DNA from: an uncultured delta proteobacterium | GTDB lineage: Bacteria; Desulfobacterota; Binatia; UBA9968 | Assembly (NCBI GenBank): GCA_963771465.1 | Contig: CAVYTU010000014.1 | Coordinates: 128,001 to 192,000 of the forward strand | Length of the DNA stretch: 64,000 nt | Direction of reading: 5' to 3' | In this document: positions 3,864-25,541 of the stretch, piece after piece | Layout: each line of letters begins with the position of its first letter | How positions within the stretch are numbered: the first letter of the stretch is position 1 | The notes under the pieces: model-generated | What the model was told of the DNA's origin: nothing | The model's database searches: none | The model's input: the letters and a program-made list of their open reading frames with translations, nothing else | Translations under genes and position numbers: made by a program

Positions 3864-5291
3864 TTACTCTGATTTATTTTTACCCGCCAGACTCGCGCCG
3901 AATTTCAGCTTCACTTTTTCTTTCAGCGCCGCGCTTGCGCCCGACACTTTGGGAAACTCATTGATCCACTCGTAAGGCCGGCACGCGTCAATGATGCAGC
4001 GCGACTGAAAGCCGCGCTCGCTCGGCGGGATGATCGGATCGATGGGATTACTCCAGCAGCGTTGCAATATATCGATATCCTTGGCCGGATCAGTGCGCGT
4101 GCACAGCGCCCAGAGCAGTTCGTTGCTGTCCCAGATGTCGATATCGTCGTCGACGACCATCACATAGCGCGTGAGTAATGCCGCCGCGCGGCACTGGGAC
4201 GCGATCAGGGCCGCCTGGCGCGCGTGGCCGGGATAGCGCTGCTTGATCGACAGCGCAACCAACAGTCGGGTTTGATGATAGGCGACGCCGCGCACGTCGG
4301 GCACCCCGGCTTTGTCGAGGTAATTCCAAATGTATGCAGCGCGAATTAAATTATTTTCCGCCCCCGGCGCCGGCTTGAACGGCGGCGCGCCGGTGAGGAT
4401 CGGATCGTTGCGATACATGAGCCGTTTCACTTTGAGCATCGGCTCGGAGCGCAGACCGCCGGCGTAATAACCGGTGAATTCGCCGAAGGGCCCCTCGGGA
4501 ATGTTCGTGCCGGGAATCACTTCGCCTTCGATGACGATCTCCGAATAGGCCGGAATCGGCAATCCGGTGTGTTTGCCGAGAATCACTTCGTAACCTTCCC
4601 CACGCACGCCGCCGGCGTAATCGTATTCCGACTCCCCGGCTGGGATTTCCATCTGGCCGAAAAACCACAGCAGTGGATCGGGACCGAAGCTGATGGCCAC
4701 GGGGAACGGCTGGCCCTTGTCGAAATACTTTTGCCGATGGATGTTGCCGTGGTGGCCCGGCGAAATGTAAAGCGCCAAGGTGTCGCGGTCGTGCACCATG
4801 ACGCGGTAACAACCGACATTAATCCAACCGTCGTCTAAATCGCGCGTGATCGTCGCGTTGAGCGAGCCAATATATCGCCCGCCGTCGCCTTCGTGCCAAT
4901 GGGGCGAGGGCAGCGAGAGCAAGTCGATATCCTTGCCTTCAAAAACATTTTCCAGGACCGGTCCAGACTCGACCACGCGCGGCGGAATCAGCGCGGGCTT
5001 GTCGAGGCGCTTTTTCCACGCCTCGATGAACTGATCGCGCGTGTAGTCGAGCGGCAGATGATTGGTCAAACATTGACGCTTGAGTGTGGGATTGTGGATG
5101 CCCGTGAGTACGCGCCGGCCCGCCGGATAATCTTTGATCTTGTCGAACAATACCGCCGGTGATGGATTGGACTGCGCCGCGACTTCCGCCACCGCGCCGA
5201 TCTCCTGATTCCAATCGGCGCCCTCGACGATCCGTAATTCGCCAAACGAATCGACGCCCGCCAACCAGCCGCGCAAATCTCGGTAGTGCAT
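3864..5291 (-). CDS. UbiD-family (prFMN-dependent) decarboxylase
   Basis: MHYRDLRGWL start (ATG 5291); GCYRVMVH, EGPFGEFTGYY, VVDDDIDI, WALCTR and IIDACRP motifs. Confidence 0.92.
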   Translation of the reverse strand: MHYRDLRGWLAGVDSFGELRIVEGADWNQEIGAVAEVAAQSNPSPAVLFDKIKDYPAGRRVLTGIHNPTLKRQCLTNHLPLDYTRDQFIEAWKKRLDKPALIPPRVVESGPVLENVFEGKDIDLLSLPSPHWHEGDGGRYIGSLNATITRDLDDGWINVGCYRVMVHDRDTLALYISPGHHGNIHRQKYFDKGQPFPVAISFGPDPLLWFFGQMEIPAGESEYDYAGGVRGEGYEVILGKHTGLPIPAYSEIVIEGEVIPGTNIPEGPFGEFTGYYAGGLRSEPMLKVKRLMYRNDPILTGAPPFKPAPGAENNLIRAAYIWNYLDKAGVPDVRGVAYHQTRLLVALSIKQRYPGHARQAALIASQCRAAALLTRYVMVVDDDIDIWDSNELLWALCTRTDPAKDIDILQRCWSNPIDPIIPPSERGFQSRCIIDACRPYEWINEFPKVSGASAALKEKVKLKFGASLAGKNKSE

Positions 5292-5382
5292 CCCTTCGCC
5301 TCCAGTCGCGCCGATCTTAGAACGGAGCACGGACTCGCACAACTACCGTATGATCTGATTTCGCTAGGCGAGAAATTGCGCT

Positions 5383-6654
5383 ATGTTTTTGATCATGAAT
5401 TACTTCCATCCGAACTTTGCGCCCTTTGCGTTCTTTGTGGCCTCCCTCATTCCGATGTCTTTCTCCCTATGCGTTGCAGCCGACTCCAGTCGCGTCATCG
5501 AAACCGGCCCCGCGGAAAAACTCGTCTTGCCGCCGCCTTATGCGACCCGCGGTGTCGCCAATCCGTCTCGCGTTGTTGGTTGGCCCAAAGGGAAAATGCC
5601 GACGGCGCCGGCGGGTTTCGAAGTGAATCTATTCGCCGAAGATCTCGACAATCCGCGCACGATCCACGTCTTGCCGAATGGCGACGTGCTGGTGATGGAA
5701 TCCCGGCGCCGCCAAGGGCCGAGCCGCATCATACTTTTTCGCGACGACAACAAAGACGGCAAACCCGAGCGCCGCGGGGTATTTATCGACAACCTCAACG
5801 GCGCGTTCGGCATGGCTCTGCACGGCAATCGTTTCTATGTCGGCAACACCGACGCCGTAGTCGTCTTTCCTTATCAGAGCGGCGACACCAGGATCACGCG
5901 CCAGGGAGAAAAGATTCTTGATCTCCCCAGCGGCGGACATTACTCACGCACCGTCATCATCGATCCCGACGGCAAGAAACTCTATATCAGCGTCGGCTCA
6001 GCGACCAACGTCGATGAGGAAATGATCGACGCCAAAGATTCGCGCCGCGCCACCGTCTTGCAAGCAAACCTCGACGGCAGCGCCATGCGCGTGTTTGCCA
6101 GCGGTCTAAGAAATGCTGTCGGCTTGGACTGGGAGCCGAAGAGCAAACAATTGTGGGCAGTGGTCAATGAACGCGACATGCTCGGCGACGAATTGGTGCC
6201 GGATTATCTGACGAGCGTAAAGGAAAATGCTTTCTATGGCTGGCCGTATGCTTACTTCGGTCCGAACGAAGACCCGCGCAAAAAAAACCAGCGCCCCGAG
6301 CTCGTTGCCAAAACGATCAAACCCGACTACGCGCTCGGCTCCCACGTCGCGCCGCTGGGATTGGCATTTTACACCGGTAAGTCATTTACGGCTCGCTACC
6401 AGGGCGGCGCATTCGTCGGCATGCACGGTTCATGGAACAGATCGAATCTGGTCGGCTACAAAGTCGCCTTCGTGCCGTTTCAAAACGGCAAACCGAGCGG
6501 CACCATGGAAGATTTCCTGACGGGTTTCCTCTCGAATCCCAAATCCAACGAAGTCTATGGCCGCCCCGTTGGCGTCACCGTAGCAAACGACGGCTCACTG
6601 CTCGTCGCCGACGACGGCGCCAACAAAGTCTGGCGCGTGAGTATAAAGAAATAG
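5383..6654 (+). CDS. PQQ-dependent glucose/sorbosone dehydrogenase family protein (start uncertain)
   Basis: LYISVGSATN, FASGLRNAVGL, VNERDMLGDELVPDYLT, GSHVAPLG, HGSWNRS and GRPVGV motifs. Confidence 0.9.
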   Translation: MFLIMNYFHPNFAPFAFFVASLIPMSFSLCVAADSSRVIETGPAEKLVLPPPYATRGVANPSRVVGWPKGKMPTAPAGFEVNLFAEDLDNPRTIHVLPNGDVLVMESRRRQGPSRIILFRDDNKDGKPERRGVFIDNLNGAFGMALHGNRFYVGNTDAVVVFPYQSGDTRITRQGEKILDLPSGGHYSRTVIIDPDGKKLYISVGSATNVDEEMIDAKDSRRATVLQANLDGSAMRVFASGLRNAVGLDWEPKSKQLWAVVNERDMLGDELVPDYLTSVKENAFYGWPYAYFGPNEDPRKKNQRPELVAKTIKPDYALGSHVAPLGLAFYTGKSFTARYQGGAFVGMHGSWNRSNLVGYKVAFVPFQNGKPSGTMEDFLTGFLSNPKSNEVYGRPVGVTVANDGSLLVADDGANKVWRVSIKK

Positions 6655-6829
6655 GAATCGAATTATTGCCGCAAAGAACGCACGGGACACAAAAGAGAAT
6701 CAGCGATTAGGTCACTGCCAATGAGACATTCACTGGCGTGCCAATCGCCCGATCAGAGTTTTGCCAATTTTTCGTTCTTAAGAAACCATTTTGACGGTCG
6801 CTTTCGTATAGTCATTTGATCGCTAAACA

Positions 6830-8521
6830 TCACGCGTGCCCGTTGCGAGGATAGCGCGCATTGCGTAATACCGTCCCTGAAGTCGCACCGGTAGGCTTTT
6901 CGTGATCGAGCACTACCTCCCCGTTGACAACGGTGTAATGGATACCATCGGCCAGTACACGCATCCTCCATCCATTGTGCGGAAAGTCATGGACAACTTC
7001 TTGTCGTCTCGGCTGCACCGTGTTGGGATCGAACACAACCAAGTCTGCCGCCAATCCCGGCCGCAACAACCCTCGATCATAAATTCCATAAGCCGATGCG
7101 GAATCGAACGTGAGGCGCCGAACGGCTTGCTCGAGCGACATAACTCCTTGTTCTCGCACCCAGTAACCCAGTAGTCTTGTGCTATAGCCAACTTCGGAAT
7201 GATACTGGACATGCGCGCCGCCGTCCGACAAACCTACTACCGTATAAGGACTGTTTAAAATTTCGCCGACGGAATTGCGATCGGTATTTCTGTGGCAAAA
7301 ACCAAAGACGGTATCGAGTTTTTCCTGCACCGCCAAATCAAGAAACGCGTCTAACGGCTCCTTGCTCTGCATTGCGGCAATCTCACTAACCCGCTTTCCT
7401 CTCAGTTGCTGGTTTTGAGGTAAGGCAGTGTCATCGACCATGAGTATATCCCAACGCTTATCGAAGCCGTTGTCCGGAAGATCGAGATCGGCGCGTAGTT
7501 TCTCGCGCATCGCCGGATCATTGTACATGCGCAACTTCTCGTCGTCTGAGACCTGCATGATGGCCAGCCAGTTAGGCATTTGGCGGAAGAACTGGGAATT
7601 TTTCAAATTGAAGAGAATCACCGCGCTGTTTGGAGTGCAAAGCGGCACGGCTCGTGTCCCTTCTTTATAGCGCTCTTCGACAAGGTTGAGATGCTCTCGC
7701 CAGCGGCGCGGCGCGTGCAGGCTATGGGTAATGCTGTTGTACATCAAGGGGCGGCCCGAGACCCCGGATAGCCGGCTCATTAAGCCCTGCTTGAGTTCAG
7801 GAGCGGCGCCACCACCGCATTGCATGACCCCCGTGCCAACTTCTTGCAGCACTTGCGCCAGCGCCAGCATCTCCGCCTCCGGAGCAAACGCGGCAGGGAT
7901 CAGCTTCCCCCGTACGTCCAAATGACTCATGTTGCGCGAGACCGACAACCCAAGAGCCCCGGCCTCCAGCGCCTCGCGCACGACTCGCCGCATGACGTCG
8001 AGCTCACCCTCTGTCGCCGCGCGTTCCTGACTCGCTTCCCCCATCGCAAAAAGTCGCACTGCCGAGTGGCCAACCAACGTGCCCACGTTGATGGACAGAC
8101 GTTTGCCAATGGCGTCCATGTACTCGGGAAAAGTCTCCCAGTTCCACGGCACGGCTTCCCGCAAAATATCCATGGGAATGGCTTCCACTTCGGAAAGCAT
8201 GCCTGCCAATGTTTCATGGTCGTTAGGCCTGACCGGCGCGAGTGTCAGCGAGCAGTTACCGATGATGACGCTGGTGGCGCCGTGATAGCAGGAGTACGTG
8301 CAGAGCGGATCCCAAGTGACCTGCGCGTCATAGTGACAATGATTGTCGATAAAGCCGGGAGCGATGACGTTGCCCTCGGCGTCGATAACGCGCTTGGCCG
8401 GTCCGTCTAAACGGCCGAGCTCGACGATTTTGCCACCGCTGATCGCGACATCACCATGAAACGCCGGCATACCCGAGCCATCGATGATTCGGCCATTTTT
8501 TACGAGCAAGTCATAGACCAT
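6830..8521 (-). CDS. N-acyl-D-amino-acid deacylase-like amidohydrolase
   Basis: YDLLVKNGRIIDGSG, PGFIDNHCHYD, SDGGAH and GLLRPGLAADLVVFDP motifs; SD GGAGG before ATG 8521. Confidence 0.9.
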   Translation of the reverse strand: MVYDLLVKNGRIIDGSGMPAFHGDVAISGGKIVELGRLDGPAKRVIDAEGNVIAPGFIDNHCHYDAQVTWDPLCTYSCYHGATSVIIGNCSLTLAPVRPNDHETLAGMLSEVEAIPMDILREAVPWNWETFPEYMDAIGKRLSINVGTLVGHSAVRLFAMGEASQERAATEGELDVMRRVVREALEAGALGLSVSRNMSHLDVRGKLIPAAFAPEAEMLALAQVLQEVGTGVMQCGGGAAPELKQGLMSRLSGVSGRPLMYNSITHSLHAPRRWREHLNLVEERYKEGTRAVPLCTPNSAVILFNLKNSQFFRQMPNWLAIMQVSDDEKLRMYNDPAMREKLRADLDLPDNGFDKRWDILMVDDTALPQNQQLRGKRVSEIAAMQSKEPLDAFLDLAVQEKLDTVFGFCHRNTDRNSVGEILNSPYTVVGLSDGGAHVQYHSEVGYSTRLLGYWVREQGVMSLEQAVRRLTFDSASAYGIYDRGLLRPGLAADLVVFDPNTVQPRRQEVVHDFPHNGWRMRVLADGIHYTVVNGEVVLDHEKPTGATSGTVLRNARYPRNGHA

Positions 8522-17249: not shown

Positions 17250-18263
17250 ATGTCCGAAGCGCTCAAAGCGTTCGAAGAAGAACTCCAAGCAAAAAGTTTC
17301 AAAGGCTATTGGCAGAACCAGCAGGGCGATTTCAAGCGCGAACCGGTAGCGTCGTTCGATTCCTGTATGTGGAAAGGGAAAGATCTTTTCGCCGCCATGG
17401 AAAAGGCAGGCGACGTGGTCGGCCTCGACGTGTCGTTTCGCCGCGTCATTCAGATGTGGAATCCAGCGCTCAAAAACGGCACCACGCGGACCCTCGTGCT
17501 CAATCTCCAGATGCTCAAGCCCGGCGAAGACGCGCTGTCACACCGCCACATGGCCGGTGCGATTCGTTTCATCTTGAAAGGCCACGGCACGCGCTTGATC
17601 GTCGAGGGCGAGTCGTTTGAGATTGGCGAAGGCGATTTCGTCACCACGCCCAGTTGGACGTGGCATGATCACGAAAACCGCGGCGAGACGATGATGTGGC
17701 TCGACGGCCTGGACGCGCCGCTGGTGCGTTTGCTCGAAACCGATTTTCACGAGCCCGACCCGCGCCGCAAGCAAACCGTGACGAAGCCCGAAGGCTACAC
17801 GCTGGCCACGGTCGGCGCGCTGCGTCCGGCGTGGCTGAAGCAAGACTCAGTTCAACCGCCGGCATTTTGTTACAAGTGGGCGGACACGGAGCGAGCGCTG
17901 AGCAAAGTCGGCGAGCAGCCCGGCGATCCCTATGACGGCATCGTGCTCGATTATGCCAATCCGTTGACCGGCGGACCGACCTTGCCGACGATGGCCTGTC
18001 AGATTCACATGCTGCGCGGCGGTGAAAAAACCAAGAGCCACCGCCACACGGCTTCGGTCATTTACCATGTCTGGCGCGGCAGCGGTGTGAGCTACGTCGG
18101 CGACAAGCGCTTCGAATGGGAACAAGGCGACTCCTTCGTCGTGCCGCTATGGCAGAATCATCGCCATGAGAATACGTCCAAAGATCCCGCGATCTTTTTC
18201 GTCATGTCCGACAAACCGTTGATGGACGCCATCGGCCACTACCGCGAAGAAGCCGCGGCGTAA
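17250..18263 (+). CDS. Gentisate 1,2-dioxygenase-like bicupin ring-cleavage enzyme
   Basis: HRHMAGAIRF...TPSWTWHDH, WLDGLDAPL, YANPLTGGPTLPTM and HRHTAS motifs. Confidence 0.88.
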   Translation: MSEALKAFEEELQAKSFKGYWQNQQGDFKREPVASFDSCMWKGKDLFAAMEKAGDVVGLDVSFRRVIQMWNPALKNGTTRTLVLNLQMLKPGEDALSHRHMAGAIRFILKGHGTRLIVEGESFEIGEGDFVTTPSWTWHDHENRGETMMWLDGLDAPLVRLLETDFHEPDPRRKQTVTKPEGYTLATVGALRPAWLKQDSVQPPAFCYKWADTERALSKVGEQPGDPYDGIVLDYANPLTGGPTLPTMACQIHMLRGGEKTKSHRHTASVIYHVWRGSGVSYVGDKRFEWEQGDSFVVPLWQNHRHENTSKDPAIFFVMSDKPLMDAIGHYREEAAA

Positions 18264-18311: not shown

Positions 18312-19085
18312 ATGTTCACGCTCTCGCAAAAATTAAATCCCGATGAATTCATCAAGACCTTCTTCGAAGCCAACCGGCAGGATCATCAGCGGCCGGCCCA
18401 TCCGTGGGACGAGATTTTTCGTAACGGCAAGTGCAGCCGAGAGCAGCTGCAAGGTTGGGGCAAGGAACGCTACTACTTCACCAAGCAGGTGCCGATCAAA
18501 GAGTACTCGATACTCTATAATTGCCCGCACACCGACGTGCGCCGCAGGTGGCTGCCCAAAGCGATCGAGGAGGAGGGCGAAGATTTGATCGGCAAGTCGG
18601 GCAAACCCCATCCCGAATACTGGCTCGATGTCTGCGTCGGCATGGGCATGGAGCGCGACTTCGTCAAGCATTCAGAACCGCTCTACGGCGTCAAATTTGC
18701 CGTCGACAGTTTCGCCAACGCGGCATTCAAAACCTCTTGGCTGCTCGGCGTCGCCGTTTCCGAAGGCGACGATACGGCGAAAGCGATGTCCCGCGACTTG
18801 GATATTTTCCGCAAGCACTATCCATGGGTGCCCGACGACGCCTTAACTTTCTACAAACTGCACGCCGATGTTGACGTGGAGCATGGCCTGATCCGCAAAG
18901 AGATTTTGCAAAAATACGCCGATACCAAAGAACTGCAAGAAGCCTGCATCAACGCCCAGCTGATGAAAAATAATATGCGCCGGGTGATGGCCGACTGCAT
19001 CTACATGACCTACGTGGTGCAAGGCATGAAGGTGAACGAGAACGGCGCCGCCAGCGTCGGTGAAAGCGTAGTTCCGATCAATTGA
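18312..19085 (+). CDS. Heme-oxygenase-like diiron oxidase (PqqC/TenA/CADD-like)
   Basis: HPW..IF..G...REQLQGW...RYY, IEEEG...HPEYW, SEG and HADVDVEH diiron-type ligands. Confidence 0.82.
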   Translation: MFTLSQKLNPDEFIKTFFEANRQDHQRPAHPWDEIFRNGKCSREQLQGWGKERYYFTKQVPIKEYSILYNCPHTDVRRRWLPKAIEEEGEDLIGKSGKPHPEYWLDVCVGMGMERDFVKHSEPLYGVKFAVDSFANAAFKTSWLLGVAVSEGDDTAKAMSRDLDIFRKHYPWVPDDALTFYKLHADVDVEHGLIRKEILQKYADTKELQEACINAQLMKNNMRRVMADCIYMTYVVQGMKVNENGAASVGESVVPIN

Positions 19086-19178: not shown

Positions 19179-20150
19179 ATGAGATGCCGCATAAATTTTA
19201 TCCTCGCGCTAATTCTTCTGCTGACGGTGAATCATCCGGCCCACGCCGCCCCCGTGCGTATCGCCTACAGTTCCATCAGCGCCGCGATGCTGCCGCTGTT
19301 CGTCGCCAAGGACAAAAAGCTTTTCGATAAATATGGCGTCGACGTCGAACTCACCTACATTCGCGGCGTCGCCATCGAAGCTTTGATCGCCGGCGAAGTG
19401 CAGTTCGTGCGCGCCTCGCCGCCATCCGTCGTTCGCTCCACCCTGCGCGGCGCCGATCTCGCCGTCATCGCCAACACCATCAACGTCCCGGTCTTCTCTC
19501 TCATGACCCGCGCCGACTTGAGACGGCCCGAAGACCTCAAAGGCAGAAAGATTGGCGTGACCGGTCTCGGCGACTCACCCGATTTCGTTCTGAGCATGAT
19601 TCTTGAAAAGTTAGGCTTTCAGCGGAGCAGCGATGTCACAGTCCTGGCGATCCGCGGCGGCATGCCCGACTTGATGATCGCCGTGAGCAAAGGCTTCGTC
19701 GACGGCGGCATGATTTCTGCGCCGAGCAATCTGCGCGGCATCAAGCTCGGTTTGCGCGAATTGATCGACTCCGCCGATCTCGGCGTGCCGTATTTAAACT
19801 CACCGATGAGCACTCGACGCGCCTACATCAAAAGCAACCGAGACACCGTGCTCAGAGTTCTCCGCGCTTATTACCAAGGCGTGCAAGAAACCCACAATGA
19901 CCGCGAAGGCAGCATGAAAATCCTCGCCAAATACACCCGCGTCACCGAGCCGGAAATCCTCGCCGAATCCTACCGCATCTATGGCCAGAGACATTTGCAG
20001 AAGTCGATCAACGTAGATTTGGACGGCGTCCGGCAACTGCTGAAGCACATCGGCAAAGACGCTGCCGGCGCAAACGCGGCAAGCTTTGTGGATGCTTCGC
20101 TCGTGCAGGAATTGGAGAAAGACGGGTTCTTTCAGCAGAAGGCACGGTGA
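19179..20150 (+). CDS. ABC transporter substrate-binding protein, NMT1/SsuA-like
   Basis: Signal peptide; LFDKYGVDVEL and DLKGRKIGV motifs. Confidence 0.88.
   Translation: MRCRINFILALILLLTVNHPAHAAPVRIAYSSISAAMLPLFVAKDKKLFDKYGVDVELTYIRGVAIEALIAGEVQFVRASPPSVVRSTLRGADLAVIANTINVPVFSLMTRADLRRPEDLKGRKIGVTGLGDSPDFVLSMILEKLGFQRSSDVTVLAIRGGMPDLMIAVSKGFVDGGMISAPSNLRGIKLGLRELIDSADLGVPYLNSPMSTRRAYIKSNRDTVLRVLRAYYQGVQETHNDREGSMKILAKYTRVTEPEILAESYRIYGQRHLQKSINVDLDGVRQLLKHIGKDAAGANAASFVDASLVQELEKDGFFQQKAR
19941..20150 (+). repeat. Copy 1 (intact, in-gene) of a ~200-bp SBP 3'-end repeat
   Basis: Aligns by eye with 26949-27154 and 33264-33461. Confidence 0.85.
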
Positions 20151-20311
20151 CTCAAGCATTCATCCCGTGCCACTGTTGAAGCTACGCTAACGGTTGAGTG
20201 CTGGGCGAGCTTGGAGTGGCCGCTTTCCGGCATGCCGAAGATAAGGTTGACAGCTGTGCCTGCGGTTGATAGCAGTGCAGTCAACCCAGCGATTCATTCC
20301 TTAATGCGACT

Positions 20312-21088
20312 ATGGAAAGCGTCGACGATAAATTTATTCTTTTCACCCAGCCCGGTTGAAGCAGTTGCCTAAGAACGAAAGAGTTTCTTTCGAAAAAAGG
20401 CATCGACTTCATCGCGCTCGATATCTTGAACGATCCAACGGCACTAGAGCGGCTGGGCAAATTCGGCGTGCGCACCGTACCGGTTTTGGCGAAAGGCGAT
20501 CAGTATATCTTTTGCCAGAACCTGGAAGATGTCGCCGAGTTCGTCGGCTTGCAAGGCAGTGGGCATACGCCGCTCCCGCCCACGGCATTGATGACGAAAT
20601 GGATCACAGTGCTACGCGCGGCCCAGCGCTACATTCGTCAAATCCCCAGCGACCGGCTGGCCGAGCGCGCGATCGATAATCGCGCTCGCTCGCTTCGACT
20701 CTTGAGCCACCACATCTTTCGCATCGGCGAAGCTTTTCTCGAAACCGCCATTGACGGCGTCGAATACCGGACCAACAATGCCAACGTCCCGCCGCCCGAG
20801 GACGGAACCTGTGCCGCCGCAGAGGAAATCGCCGCCTACGGTGACGCCGTTGTTGAGCGTCTTGAAAACTGGTGGAGCCAACTCGAGGACAAATCCTGCC
20901 AGCAACCGGTGAAAACATTCTATGGCACGCCGCCGATGCACCAGCTTTTCGAGCGCTCCACCTGGCACTCCGCGCAGCATACGCGCCAGTTGATGGCCGT
21001 GCTCGAGCGCTTCGGTATCGAGCCGCAGGGGCGACTCACGGCCGAAGATCTCGCCGGTCTGCCGTTGCCGCAAGGCCTGTGGGAATGA
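20312..21088 (+). CDS. Probable selenoprotein: glutaredoxin-like (U-S-S-C) domain fused to a DinB-superfamily domain
   Basis: ATG 20312 gives MESVDDKFILFTQPG-TGA(20357-9)-SSCLRTKEFLSKKGIDF, in frame with ORF 20426..21088. Grx cis-Pro motif RTVPV; DinB His motifs LSHHIF and WHSAQH; hairpin downstream of the UGA. Confidence 0.8.
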
Positions 21089-21319
21089 CCAAGAGATAAA
21101 CGCCTGGCCGAAAAATGTTTCGTATAGACACCAAGATTAGAATCCTGCCTTTCGATTTTCTCTAAGCAATTAATCAGCTCGTAAAATTCTCGCCAAAGTC
21201 GGCACTCTGCAAACGATCTCTGCCATTGCTTGCCGAGATTTCCTCTTGAACTCGATCGTAAGCCTGTGCCATGTTGCGCCAAAGCCGTACGGCGGCTGCT
21301 ATTCGGAAGGGACGGTCGG

Positions 21320-22786
21320 ATGGGACTGACGCAAGAAGTTGCCCACTTTGTCGCGCGGACACGCTACCGGGATATTCCCAAAGAGGTCGTCCAACTGGCG
21401 CGAGGATTCATCCTGGATGGACTCGGCGTCGCCTTGGCCGGTTCGACCGATGAGTGCTCGCGCATCGTTCAAGCACAAATCCGGCAAATGAACGGCAAGG
21501 GCGAGTCGTCGATTGTCGGCACCGCGCTCTCAGCGCCGGCAGCCAAAGCGGCTCTGGCCAACGGCGTGGCCGGCCATGCGATGGATTACGACGACACCCA
21601 ACTGTCAACTTCCAAGGAAGCCGTTTACGGTCTTTTGACGCATCCGACGACGCCTGTGCTCGCCGCCGTGTTGGCGATCGGTGAGAAAGAAAAAATCAGC
21701 GGCGAGGAATTTGTTTTGGCCTATCTCTTAGGCGTCGAAGTCGAGTGCCGTATCGCCGATGCGATCAACCCACGCCACTATCAGTCTGGTTTTCATTCCA
21801 CCGCGACCATGGGCGGCATCGGCGCCGCCATGGCGGTGGGGAAAATCCTTCGTCTCAACGAGGCGAAGTTGATGCAAACGTTGGGCATTGCCGCCAGCAT
21901 GGCGTCGGGCTTGCGCGAAAATTTCGGCACCATGACCAAGCCGCTGCACGCGGGACGCGCTGCGGAGAACGGCGTGAGCGCCGCCTTGTTGGCGCGCGAC
22001 GGCTTCACGGCGGCGGCGAATATTCTCGAAGCCCGCCGCGGCTTTTTCAACGCCATGGCCGGCGGTTGCGACGAGAGCAAGATTACCGGGCGCCTCGGTT
22101 CGCCTTACTTTATGATGGAGCCGGGAATTTCCATCAAGCCGTATCCATCCGGCTCACTCTCCCACCCGGCGCAAGATTTGATTCTCGACCTGGTCAAACA
22201 GCATGATCTTGGCGTGGACGACATCGATCACGTCGAGGTCGGCACCAATTCCAACGTGCCCAACGCGCTGATCTATCCGATGCCCAAGACCGCGCTGGAA
22301 GGTAAATTCAGCATTCCATTCTGCATGGCGATCGCTATCCTCGAGCGCAAGGCCGGCATCGCCGAGTTTCAAGACCGCAAGGTGCGCGACAAGAAGGTCG
22401 TCGAATTGATGAAGCGAGTGACGCTCTCTGTCGACGATGAACTGGAAAAGCTCGGCTACGATCAGGTGCGTTCACGGATTCGCATCGGACTGAAAAATGG
22501 CCGGGTGATCGAAGGGCGCTACGATGTCGCGCGTGGACACCCGGAGAAACCGATGAGCTGGACCGAGTTGGGCGATAAATTTCGCGACTGCGCCGGGCTC
22601 GTGCTGGCGGATAAGGACGCCGAGACGGCGATCCAATTGGTCGCCCGCATCGAAGCACTGAAAAGCTTAAGACCCCTGTTCCGCGCTCTGACCAGCGGCG
22701 GGGTGAACGCAGCCAAAAAGTCTAAAACCACAAAACGCGGCAGTCAAAAGCGCCGCGTTGAATCGGTAAGGAGGAAAAGATCATGA
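21320..22786 (+). CDS. MmgE/PrpD family protein
   Basis: ANGVAGHAMDYDD, THPT, GFHSTAT, GTMTKPLHAG and IKPYPSG motifs. Confidence 0.92.
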   Translation: MGLTQEVAHFVARTRYRDIPKEVVQLARGFILDGLGVALAGSTDECSRIVQAQIRQMNGKGESSIVGTALSAPAAKAALANGVAGHAMDYDDTQLSTSKEAVYGLLTHPTTPVLAAVLAIGEKEKISGEEFVLAYLLGVEVECRIADAINPRHYQSGFHSTATMGGIGAAMAVGKILRLNEAKLMQTLGIAASMASGLRENFGTMTKPLHAGRAAENGVSAALLARDGFTAAANILEARRGFFNAMAGGCDESKITGRLGSPYFMMEPGISIKPYPSGSLSHPAQDLILDLVKQHDLGVDDIDHVEVGTNSNVPNALIYPMPKTALEGKFSIPFCMAIAILERKAGIAEFQDRKVRDKKVVELMKRVTLSVDDELEKLGYDQVRSRIRIGLKNGRVIEGRYDVARGHPEKPMSWTELGDKFRDCAGLVLADKDAETAIQLVARIEALKSLRPLFRALTSGGVNAAKKSKTTKRGSQKRRVESVRRKRS

Positions 22787-23813: not shown

Positions 23814-25541
23814 ATGCCCGCTTCTCAAACCGGGACCCTCGATCGAGTCGGCCACGCGGGCTGGTCCGCGCTGCGATTCAAGGATCCGACCTTGCCCGTG
23901 TGGATCGGCGCGGCGCTGCTTCTAATCTTTTTGATGCTCTTGCCGCTGGGCGCAATTTTTCGCTCCAGCGTCTGGGGTGATACTGGGTTCACGTTCAGCA
24001 GATATCTTGAAGTCTTTACCAACCAACAATTTCTCAAGGCGATCTGGAACACCTTGATCATTTCCACCTGGGTGGGAGTGATCGCGGTGATCATCGGCGC
24101 TCTGCTCGCCTGGTTGGTGACGCGCACCGATTTGCCCTGGAAAAAACCGATCCGCGCGCTGGTGATGGCGTCGTTCGTGACGCCGCCGTTCCTGGGAGCG
24201 TTTGCCTGGACGTTGCTCGCCGGACCCAACGCCGGTTCGCTGAACAAACTCTACCGCGCCGTGACCGGTTCCGAAGAAGCGCTGTTCAATATATTCACCA
24301 TGCCGGGGCTGATTTTTGTCATGGCGCTCTACAGCTTCCCATTCGTTTTTTCCATGATCGCCAACGTCTGCGAGCTGATCTCGTCGGATCTTGAAGACGC
24401 CGCGGAGATATTGGGCGCGAACAAATGGCGCACGGCTTGGACCGTCACCCTGCCCTTGGCGCTGCCGGCGCTGATCAGCGGTTTCATCCTGGCTTTTCTC
24501 CAATCGCTGTCGCTCTTCGGCGCGCCGGCGATACTCGGCCTGCCCGCGGGCTTGCACACGATCACGACGCAGATCTGGACGCTGTTTCAATATCCGCCGC
24601 GCCTGGATATGGCTGCCGCTTTTTCCGTGCCGCTGCTGCTGGCGACGATGCTGTTGCTTGCCGTGCAAAAAAAAATCCTCGGGCGAAAAGGCTACAGCAC
24701 GGTGGGCGGTAAAGGCGGACAGAAACGTTTAATCCGGCTGGGCTGGGGCCGAATTCCAGTGCTGCTTCTCGTTTTTGGAATTCTTTCGCTCTCAGTCTTC
24801 TTGCCTTATTGGATTCTGCTTAAAGCGGCGCTCTCCAAAGCCTGGGCGCTGCCGTTAACCTGGGATAATTTTACGCTGCACAACGTTTACTTTAGTTTTT
24901 TCGAGTACGGCGATACTCAACTGGCGATCTACAATACGTTTAAATTGGGACTGATCACGGCGACCGTCGGCACGCTGTTGGCGACGCTCATCGCTTACAT
25001 CACCAATCGCAATCTGTTTCGCGGCGCGCGCTATCTGAGTTTTTTCGCGCTGGCGCCGCTGGTGATTCCCGGTATTGTTTTGGCCGTCGGTCTGTTCATC
25101 GTCTACACTCGGCCACCGCTGGTGCTCTACGGCACCCTATGGATTCTTTTCGTGGCTTTTTTAACTAAAGAAATGCCGATTGGATTTTCCCAGGCAGAGT
25201 CCACCTTCAAGAGCATTCACCCGGAGCTCGAAGATGCCAGCCGGATTATCGGCGCCAACCGGCTCATGTCCCTCAAAGATGTAACCGCGCCGCTGGCGCG
25301 CTCCGGACTGATCGCCGGGTGGTCTTTTATCTTCATCGGCGTCATCCGTGAGCTCAGCACCGCAATCCTGTTATTCGCGCCCAAGTCGAAAGTTGTTTCG
25401 GTGGTCATCTTCGATCTGAAAGAAGAAGGACAAGTGGGAGTTATCGCCGTTTTAGGAATTCTTTTGCTGGTGGTTTCCTTCGCGGTCATACTTGCGGTCC
25501 AGTGGTTCGGGGGACGGGACGTGATGGCGACGCGGGAATAG
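23814..25541 (+). CDS. ABC transporter permease, FbpB-like
   Basis: Two EAA-type loops (LEDAAEILGA, LEDASRIIGA); many TM helices. Confidence 0.92.
   Translation: MPASQTGTLDRVGHAGWSALRFKDPTLPVWIGAALLLIFLMLLPLGAIFRSSVWGDTGFTFSRYLEVFTNQQFLKAIWNTLIISTWVGVIAVIIGALLAWLVTRTDLPWKKPIRALVMASFVTPPFLGAFAWTLLAGPNAGSLNKLYRAVTGSEEALFNIFTMPGLIFVMALYSFPFVFSMIANVCELISSDLEDAAEILGANKWRTAWTVTLPLALPALISGFILAFLQSLSLFGAPAILGLPAGLHTITTQIWTLFQYPPRLDMAAAFSVPLLLATMLLLAVQKKILGRKGYSTVGGKGGQKRLIRLGWGRIPVLLLVFGILSLSVFLPYWILLKAALSKAWALPLTWDNFTLHNVYFSFFEYGDTQLAIYNTFKLGLITATVGTLLATLIAYITNRNLFRGARYLSFFALAPLVIPGIVLAVGLFIVYTRPPLVLYGTLWILFVAFLTKEMPIGFSQAESTFKSIHPELEDASRIIGANRLMSLKDVTAPLARSGLIAGWSFIFIGVIRELSTAILLFAPKSKVVSVVIFDLKEEGQVGVIAVLGILLLVVSFAVILAVQWFGGRDVMATRE

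Follow-up and report, generated by a model that had tools for sequence, protein, structure and literature searches.

An in-frame UGA followed by a SECIS-type hairpin points to a glutaredoxin-DinB selenoprotein in an uncultured Binatia bacterium

We analysed a 64,000-nucleotide stretch of DNA, referred to here as the window, from an uncultured delta proteobacterium of the Binatia (GTDB lineage UBA9968; assembly GCA_963771465.1, contig CAVYTU010000014.1, positions 128,001 to 192,000). On its forward strand, translation table 11 gives an open reading frame at 20426-21088 with a TTG start, and the in-frame codons upstream are open to an ATG at 20312 save for one TGA. The locus raises the question of whether this TGA ends translation or encodes selenocysteine (Sec, U) in a longer protein, a glutaredoxin (Grx) fused to a DinB-type domain. 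A reading made from the letters alone (the sequence-only reading) had proposed the latter, and the frame that it drew through the single TGA to ATG 20312 is present as it had described. Our comparisons make it very probable that UGA16 is a Sec codon in a functional selenoprotein gene, that a bacterial selenocysteine insertion sequence (bSECIS) lies inside the coding sequence, and that the product is a Grx-DinB enzyme. With TGA read as U, the frame at 20312-21088 (+) encodes 258 amino acids, with the sole internal TGA at 20357-20359 and the stop TGA at 21086-21088. The protein starts with MESVDDKFILFTQPG-U-SSCLRTKEFLSKKG..., the residues after U being SSCLRTKEFLS. The two features on which the question turns are as follows.

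20312..21088, + strand: predicted full selenoprotein coding sequence, from the translation with TGA as U; homologues share one TGA in the same column
20357..20359, + strand: predicted Sec-UGA, codon 16, at the first position of the U-S-S-C redox motif, from the alignment with the Cys of homologues and from locus counts

We searched 41 related genomes with stops translated. Full-length matches were found in 15 congeners (72-92% identity), among them the unpublished genome G005, and, at 31%, in one genome of another family; every match has the TGA in the same column. Fourteen of the 15 congener copies were intact, and that of G018 was additionally frameshifted. Beyond these congeners, the gene of G019 was split over two frames and two genomes had contig-end fragments only; six congeners gave weak Grx matches only. 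The TGA stood in the same column in 17/17 sequences, amid synonymous variation both upstream (P14, G15) and downstream (C19, F33, D37). The ATG and the N-terminal codons were also conserved among the orthologues, with P14 and G15 changing synonymously.

More distant relatives carry cysteine at this position. An all-against-all representative search gave 1049 relatives at E<=0.001, and the 42 full-length ones from the top 150 were aligned. Each of the 42 carries Cys at positions 16 and 19, with the consensus QPGCSSC, and the window protein matches PF00462, so that the UGA does fall on the first Cys of a Grx/NrdH CxxC motif, as the sequence-only reading had it. In a further set of 78 named loci, which overlaps the genome set above, 76 had enough sequence: codon 16 was TGA in 52, TGC in 16 and TGT in 7, and was cut by a contig end in one, leaving 75 classifiable. 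Homologues with TGA (52) and with TGC or TGT (23) thus both exist, and the TGA is not unique to this assembly. In a sample of the phylum, 3/401 genomes had the gene, with TGA in 3/3.

Just downstream of the UGA, we found the hairpin that a SelB-dependent system would require, with the following parts.

20366..20402, + strand: predicted SECIS element with lower stem, internal loops, upper stem and apical loop, from RNA folds
20376..20392, + strand: predicted SECIS core, a 7-bp upper stem with a GUU triloop, 23 nt past the UGA, from invariance, the codon test and the Sec/Cys contrast

The lower stem pairs UGCCU (20366-20370) with AGGCA (20398-20402), and the upper stem pairs CGAAAGA (20376-20382) with UCUUUCG (20386-20392) around the loop GUU (20383-20385). 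The fold of 20350-20420 had a minimum free energy (MFE) of -25.6 kcal/mol (z -3.2), which none of 200 shuffles reached, and that of 20360-20405 (46 nt) had -13.5 kcal/mol, reached by 4/200. The bSECIS model given in a review of prokaryotic selenoproteins (PMC13188914) describes a loop of 3-9 nt whose first two positions contain a G with G or U after it, an upper stem of 4-16 bp, a UGA-to-loop distance of 16-37 nt, and an MFE of <= -7.5 kcal/mol. The hairpin agrees on every count, with a 3-nt GUU loop, a 7-bp stem, a G-U start, a spacing of 23 nt and -13.5 kcal/mol for the 46-nt fold. The sequence-only reading was correct in seeing a bSECIS-type stem-loop, but its distance from UGA to loop, 17 nt, was a miscount: it is the upper stem that begins at the 17th nucleotide after the UGA, and the loop starts with its G at nucleotide 24.

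The core is identical at the nucleotide level in 17/17 sequences. Among 49 degenerate columns with an invariant amino acid in 16 Sec-form sequences, 43 use two to five codons. A single codon is used in just six, namely the TGA and the consecutive K23-E24-F25-L26-S27, which form the stem-loop. In the named loci, the exact 17-nt core was found in 49/52 Sec forms versus 0/23 Cys forms. Two of the three inexact Sec-form cores replace an A-U pair by G.U (A-to-G) and keep the pairing; the third opens the loop-closing pair and has a wider loop. The Cys forms keep the residues K-E-F-L with free choice of codons (for example, AAG GAA TTC CTG), and their residue 27 varies; one Cys locus (L113) has 14 of the 17 core bases. 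This codon-level test and the Sec-versus-Cys contrast lead us to conclude that the TGA and the hairpin are under selection.

The Sec machinery on which the proposal depends is complete in the genome. selA (614 bits), selB (359 bits), selD (376 bits, with one TGA) and tRNA-Sec (76.7 bits) all scored above curated cut-offs. The three protein genes lie in a row on the + strand of the same contig (G000 contig 14, 197319-201637; L001, L003, L011), 5.3-9.6 kb past the window end, and the tRNA-Sec gene is on another contig. selA was found in 38/41 relatives and in 16/17 genomes carrying the full-length TGA gene.

Two other genes of this genome show the same arrangement of TGA and hairpin. In selD, the in-frame TGA (KAAG-U-AAKL) is followed by a perfect 8-bp stem with a GUU triloop at +34 (33 nt between). 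A stand-alone 79-aa Sec-Grx (L124, G000 contig 7, ~23987-24205) reads MAKSVVVYTQPG-U-GPC... (YTQPG-U-GPC), and its SECIS, GAGGUAGA-GUU-UCUAUCUC, has a perfect 8-bp stem with the loop at +24, the same position as in Grx-DinB. The selD and Sec-Grx stems differ in sequence from the Grx-DinB stem, and the GUU cap is common to all three. Small Grx-like matches with TGA were also seen in nearly all 41 relatives. Elsewhere on contig 14 (L007, 13177-14205, -), a translation-GTPase-like match to the selB model has one in-frame TGA and scored 85.7 bits, below the cut-off.

Public sequence data agree with the UGA. Parts of the stretch occur in 20 public runs of 15 studies, chiefly soil and rhizosphere metagenomes. 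We compared two DNA and two RNA-library runs, all as assembled contigs, from which depth, transcript ends and expression level are not readable and in which gaps in the RNA cover carry no meaning. No variant was reported at 20357-20359 in the four runs, and one DNA contig of another study (run X2) spans 20200-20409 with the UGA unchanged and two mismatches elsewhere. In run X1, summed contig depth was 35-75 over the UGA/SECIS region (20328-20423) versus ~6 elsewhere in the gene; this soil sample seems to hold numerous different relatives with that stretch in common at the nucleotide level.

What kind of protein would the gene encode? Two domains were recognised in the translation.

20336..20509, + strand: Glutaredoxin/NrdH-like thioredoxin-fold domain, residues 9-66 (Pfam PF00462, E 2.8e-12)
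20630..20992, + strand: DinB_2 domain, residues 107-227 (Pfam PF12867), with H134 at 20711-20713, H219 at 20966-20968 and H223 at 20978-20980

The Grx domain scored 47.1 bits against a cut-off of 22.9, and 43/43 family members match PF00462. Its active site is U16-S-S-C19, with C19 at 20366-20368. The TVP motif noticed earlier is T55-V56-P57, and the cis-Pro P57 (20480-20482) is invariant in 43/43 aligned members. The family profile also matches the Grx structure 7c10 (E 3.8e-18) with the CxxC aligned. No NCBIfam model reached its cut-off, those for Grx and NrdH falling far short; the best were of the YruB/NrdH and UXX-star types, at 36-40 bits versus 66-89. NrdH-redoxin TIGR02194 gave 36.1 bits versus 85.75, YruB TIGR02196 39.9 versus 88.55, UXX-star NF041212 36 versus 66, and the relatives of the last model 15-27 versus 72-325. 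The domain is predicted to work like a small NrdH/Grx redoxin, yet it is not a member by the NrdH and YruB models.

The C-terminal domain with a His triad was likewise borne out by a DinB_2 match of 26.7 bits (cut-off 24.8) and by three His residues conserved in 33/33 DinB domains. At E<=0.001, 30/43 members matched DinB_2 and 3/43 DinB. In the 33 DinB domains, taken from both Sec and Cys loci, the invariant residues are H134, G205, H219, A221, H223, R225, Q226 and P253. The DinB profile has a weak match (E 0.007), extending nearly over its full length, to the DinB-fold PDB entry 3gor, with H134/H219/H223/Q226 aligned to His/His/His/Gln. A DinB/YfiT family structure, 6iz2, is reached by the full-length profile (E 8e-4). 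A single-sequence search of the PDB with the DinB part returned noise only, and the profile search of solved structures showed no entry with a Grx-DinB fusion. DinB superfamily proteins are described as four-helix bundles that hold a metal by three conserved His, and the characterised members BstA/YfiT and MST as thiol S-transferases (PMC10950700). The DinB_2 domain is accordingly a predicted metal-binding four-helix bundle, and the thiol-transferase activity and detoxification role proposed in the sequence-only reading may hold by family membership.

A mechanism can be proposed on this basis. The UGA at codon 16 would be recoded as Sec by the SelB/tRNA-Sec system recognising the bSECIS within the coding sequence, as the comparative evidence suggests. 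The selenolate of Sec16 would be the attacking nucleophile on a disulfide, a mixed disulfide or an electrophile, and the substrate or thiol conjugate may be handled at the DinB His3-metal site. Cys19 would resolve the intermediate, giving a selenenylsulfide, which would be re-reduced by a flavoprotein disulfide reductase, either thioredoxin reductase or, with glutathione, glutathione reductase. The Sec form would be the counterpart of the widespread CxxC family. Of this scheme, comparison shows the Sec-UGA, the SelB-type SECIS, an intact Grx active site with UxxC and cis-Pro, an intact DinB His triad, and the genomic association with disulfide reductase and selAB genes.

Comparisons with known systems place the protein among Sec-glutaredoxins, of which Grx-DinB is a new architectural variant. 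Table 1 of PMC13188914 counts Sec-Grx (PF00462, UxxC) among the prokaryotic selenoprotein families with experimental verification. Grx-DinB belongs to the same fold family, has Sec as the first, attacking residue of the UxxC motif, and contains its bSECIS within the coding sequence; with the genome's own stand-alone Sec-Grx it also shares the 'TQPG-U' context and the position of the GUU loop. However, Grx makes up only the first third of the 258 residues here and is fused to a DinB_2 metal domain. The UXX-star/GUXX-star families (NF041212, NF041211, NF041114, NF047338, NF045501) resemble it in a distantly related Grx-like fold and in having Sec after Gly (PG-U), and their models gave weak matches of 15-36 bits. 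UXX-star proteins end two residues after Sec, the 'star' of the family names being the stop, whereas Grx-DinB goes on with xxC and 240 more residues. With the DinB/YfiT transferases (BstA/YfiT with bacillithiol, MST with mycothiol), it has in common the DinB_2 match, a His-x3-His with a distal His, and a thiol context of GST, TrxB and Gor neighbours. Those enzymes, in contrast, stand alone, have ~150-180 aa and use a free low-molecular-weight thiol; no member is reported to be joined to a redoxin or linked with Sec.

The closest counterparts are uncharacterised CxxC Grx-DinB proteins of Proteobacteria (Pseudomonas lini, Cupriavidus sp., Caballeronia catudaia, Mesorhizobium ciceri), which are full-length homologues with 38-46% identity, the same invariant residues and often TrxB directly downstream. 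They differ in that they have Cys (TGC/TGT) and lack the SECIS core (0/23), and in that neither Ser27 nor the KEFL codons are constrained. A full-text literature search for a DinB selenoprotein or a DinB-glutaredoxin fusion found no such protein. The word 'DinB' had no occurrence in the searched text of the 2026 prokaryotic selenoproteome review (PMC13188914) and of the deep-Sep paper, although survey supplements could list the family under another name.

In the databases, the gene is called too short, since gene finders read the UGA as a stop. All 120 closest database proteins (73-95% identity) are calls of 202-238 aa with <=92% query coverage, starting at residue 20, 39 or other positions. 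Where a name is given, it is 'hypothetical protein', 'glutaredoxin' or 'DinB superfamily'. The suspicion of a mis-annotated, truncated gene was thus justified. Judged by its alignments, the Grx-DinB gene is a genuine selenoprotein gene that is systematically mis-annotated as truncated.

A putative promoter had been suggested upstream of the gene.

20247..20275, + strand: promoter-like element with -35 TTGACA (20247-20252), a 17-nt spacer and a TG-extended -10 TAGCAG (20270-20275); present in the sequence, putative in function

A TTGACA-like and TG-extended -10 pattern was found 19-41 nt before the ATG in 18/53 Sec-form loci versus 10/2650 shuffles. The suggestion holds to that extent, but a consensus promoter scan did not list the element, because its -10 is too weak. 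A terminator scan listed none after the stop of the gene.

We also examined the genomic context. Upstream neighbours in the window encode a pyruvate kinase, a gentisate/5-aminosalicylate-dioxygenase-like bicupin, a PqqC/TenA-like protein and an SsuA/NMT1-type binding protein; downstream are an MmgE/PrpD-family protein (21230-22786, +) and an ABC transporter. The bicupin (17250-18263, +), ~2 kb upstream, matches the models of gentisate 1,2-dioxygenase (254 bits) and 5-aminosalicylate 1,2-dioxygenase (282) over the full length of these models, below the equivalog cut-offs, and is adjoined by the PqqC/TenA-like gene (18312-19085). The two closest relatives with full flanks show synteny for all six neighbours, and it is in the closest relatives alone that the gene order is preserved. 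A fixed conserved operon was rejected, as neighbours vary and synteny is confined to those relatives. The sequence-only reading had placed the gene in an accessory block, which we did not find: GC content is flat (0.49-0.61), we saw no mobile genes, and the genes around it serve ordinary metabolism and transport and have the synteny just described. Across 74 loci, the following neighbours were counted.

TctC: 19 loci
SDR: 14 loci
NMT1-type binding protein: 13 loci
Amidohydro_2: 11 loci
MnmA-like: 11 loci
Pyridine-nucleotide-disulphide oxidoreductase, directly downstream on the same strand: 10 loci
GST, upstream: 9 loci
MmgE/PrpD: 8 loci
SelA: 8 loci

The downstream oxidoreductase was identified as TrxB in the Cys-form loci tested (374-385 bits versus a cut-off of 343) and as glutathione reductase in a Sec-form Betaproteobacteria locus (617 versus 606). 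In nine Betaproteobacteria-type Sec loci, tblastn showed selA following the gene, with selB next in four; in L082, for example, Grx-DinB ends at 4756, selA spans 4954-6276 and selB 6411-8210. Several Burkholderiales/Betaproteobacteria contigs from metagenome-assembled genomes (MAGs), including L082 (4001-8210), L077, L090, L116 and L098, have the Sec-form gene immediately before selA-selB, in many cases with genes for an MnmA-like tRNA thiolase, a divergently oriented GST and glutathione reductase on its flanks. These loci look like a Sec-trait cluster with its own selenoprotein. No tRNA-Sec was found near the gene in the scanned flanks of 17/17 Betaproteobacteria-type loci. One protein (P0059, 721 aa) is an MmgE/PrpD-Grx(CSSC)-DinB fusion, which together with the MmgE/PrpD adjacency hints at a functional link. 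A second candidate fusion (P0272, 502 aa, 'TctC') was rejected: it starts just after the UxxC, and its C-terminus leaves the family and runs into TctC, which we take for a frameshift or gene-call artefact.

A number of observations weigh against the selenoprotein interpretation or parts of it. No Shine-Dalgarno sequence is evident before ATG 20312. Some copies have broken frames: that of G018 (L036/L074) has an extra base in an A-run just after the SECIS, that of G019 (L037) lies in two frames, and the match lengths of L094 and L100 are not multiples of three; such copies may be homopolymer assembly errors or decaying genes. The 17-nt core alone folds with -5.2 kcal/mol, which 12/200 shuffles equalled, and the lower stem is not kept in every orthologue (for example, L033-L035). 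The stem shows almost no covariation within the family; since it is invariant, the support comes from suppressed synonymous change and from the paralogous SECIS elements, not from compensatory pairs. An Rfam E-value scan of 20000-21300 gave chance matches only, as Rfam has no family model for this SECIS. selA was not found in G009, which has the Grx-DinB gene (93% complete, 670 contigs). The DinB_2 match is barely above the Pfam cut-off, and 13/43 members miss it at E<=0.001. Neighbours vary widely across loci with no pathway fixed, and the window's own locus has no adjacent reductase, a TrxB homologue being on another contig. Finally, two RNA-library contigs of relatives cross the UGA from the N-terminal coding sequence, but DNA carry-over is possible, so that the evidence for expression of the relatives' gene is weak.

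With these points in mind, we considered other explanations. It is possible, if doubtful, that the protein serves one particular pathway as a cofactor-independent isomerase (for example, of the maleylpyruvate type) or reductase acting on unsaturated di- or tricarboxylates, and has no general role in redox reactions or detoxification. The tethered selenol or thiol would then replace the low-molecular-weight thiol of DinB-type enzymes. A mycothiol-dependent maleylpyruvate isomerase has a DinB-type domain. The gentisate-dioxygenase-like bicupin 2 kb upstream fits this explanation, as do MmgE/PrpD downstream here and in the flanks of eight loci, the P0059 fusion, and the TctC tricarboxylate receptors and Amidohydro_2 proteins in 19 and 11 loci, respectively. 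However, the dioxygenase synteny is seen only in the closest relatives (L044, L047; L061 has a 42%-identical bicupin), the most position-specific neighbours are disulfide reductases, and the fusion is a single cluster. The TctC adjacency is weak evidence, because TctC genes are very numerous in Burkholderiales. The term 'maleylpyruvate' does not occur in the searched review of the DinB superfamily (PMC10950700).

A broader proposal, to which we give a similarly small chance, is that the Sec or Cys of the redoxin replaces the free thiol at the DinB metal site. The protein would then be a self-contained selenol-metal transferase or isomerase for electrophilic unsaturated acids, linked to gentisate-type cleavage and MmgE/PrpD, and would keep the Sec trait alive together with selA-selB in Burkholderiales MAGs. 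On this proposal, K-E-F-L would be pre-adapted to the SECIS, which would lead to repeated Cys-to-Sec and Sec-to-Cys switching.

It is very unlikely that the UGA is read through mostly as something other than Sec, by a near-cognate tRNA or as Cys on tRNA-Sec, with the hairpin only promoting read-through. Sec and Cys do interchange easily in the family, so that Cys is tolerated, and the assignment of selenium to residue 16 comes from comparison, which also counts against our interpretation. Nevertheless, the hairpin fits the SelB-type bSECIS and resembles those of selD and Sec-Grx, the Sec machinery is complete, and the gene adjoins selA-selB in Betaproteobacteria MAGs. A single base change would give Cys, yet the TGA and SECIS are held in 52 loci.

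That the TGA is a true stop in a decaying or split gene, with a 15-codon remnant before a truncated DinB starting at TTG 20426 or another internal start, is highly improbable. It would agree with the table-11 frame at 20426-21088, with the 120/120 database calls and with the few frameshifted copies. An internal start, however, would halve the Grx fold and remove the active site, and the gene-caller starts differ, residue 39 (L, I or M) not being conserved as a start. No stop interrupts the 15 upstream codons, which are conserved and change synonymously at P14 and G15. In the TGA column, 42/42 homologues have Cys, and the TGA is kept at identities from 31% to 92%. The comparative data, as aligned here, already contradict a true stop. 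A sequencing or assembly error for TGC or TGT has a negligible chance, as nothing beyond the single-base codon distance speaks for it and the same TGA is shared by 15 further congeneric assemblies and by 52 named loci of many different projects, with contigs of other studies covering the site without difference and one bridging it with its two mismatches elsewhere.

We also compared the Sec and Cys forms by phylogeny. A careful maximum-likelihood (ML) tree was made with 24 Sec and 32 Cys forms, the 56 rows having been chosen, and the group for the approximately unbiased (AU) test named, after a quick tree had been seen. The ML tree needs six state changes, and its well-supported branches force at least four. 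None of 200 bootstrap trees made Sec one clade, and the AU test rejected a single Sec clade (delta lnL 80.7, p 0.002). The Binatia-type sequences group in a single clade, which is nested among Sec forms of Betaproteobacteria type; a few MAG contigs whose titles name other phyla may be mislabelled. By this phylogeny, the family has switched between Sec and Cys several times. Because all Sec forms share the same hairpin, we favour an ancient Sec form in which single-base changes repeatedly replaced Sec by Cys, together with some lateral transfer. Convergence of the hairpin in Sec forms is the alternative, since the K-E-F-L codons come near it unaided, as the 14 of 17 bases in L113 illustrate.

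The predicted protein adds an architecture, a redoxin with a DinB metal domain, to the bacterial selenoproteins and links Sec to DinB/YfiT, a superfamily with few known physiological substrates. The family is abundant in soil and rhizosphere lineages, namely Binatia-type bacteria and Burkholderiales MAGs, and surveys of selenoproteomes or redox enzymes in soils undercount Grx-DinB, because every database entry that we saw is a truncated call. Its position next to selA-selB in Betaproteobacteria MAGs suggests that the selenoprotein is transferred together with the Sec machinery. With its interleaved Sec and Cys forms, near-invariant 17-nt SECIS and reductase partner, the family would make the advantage of Sec versus Cys, and the evolution of the SECIS, directly testable.

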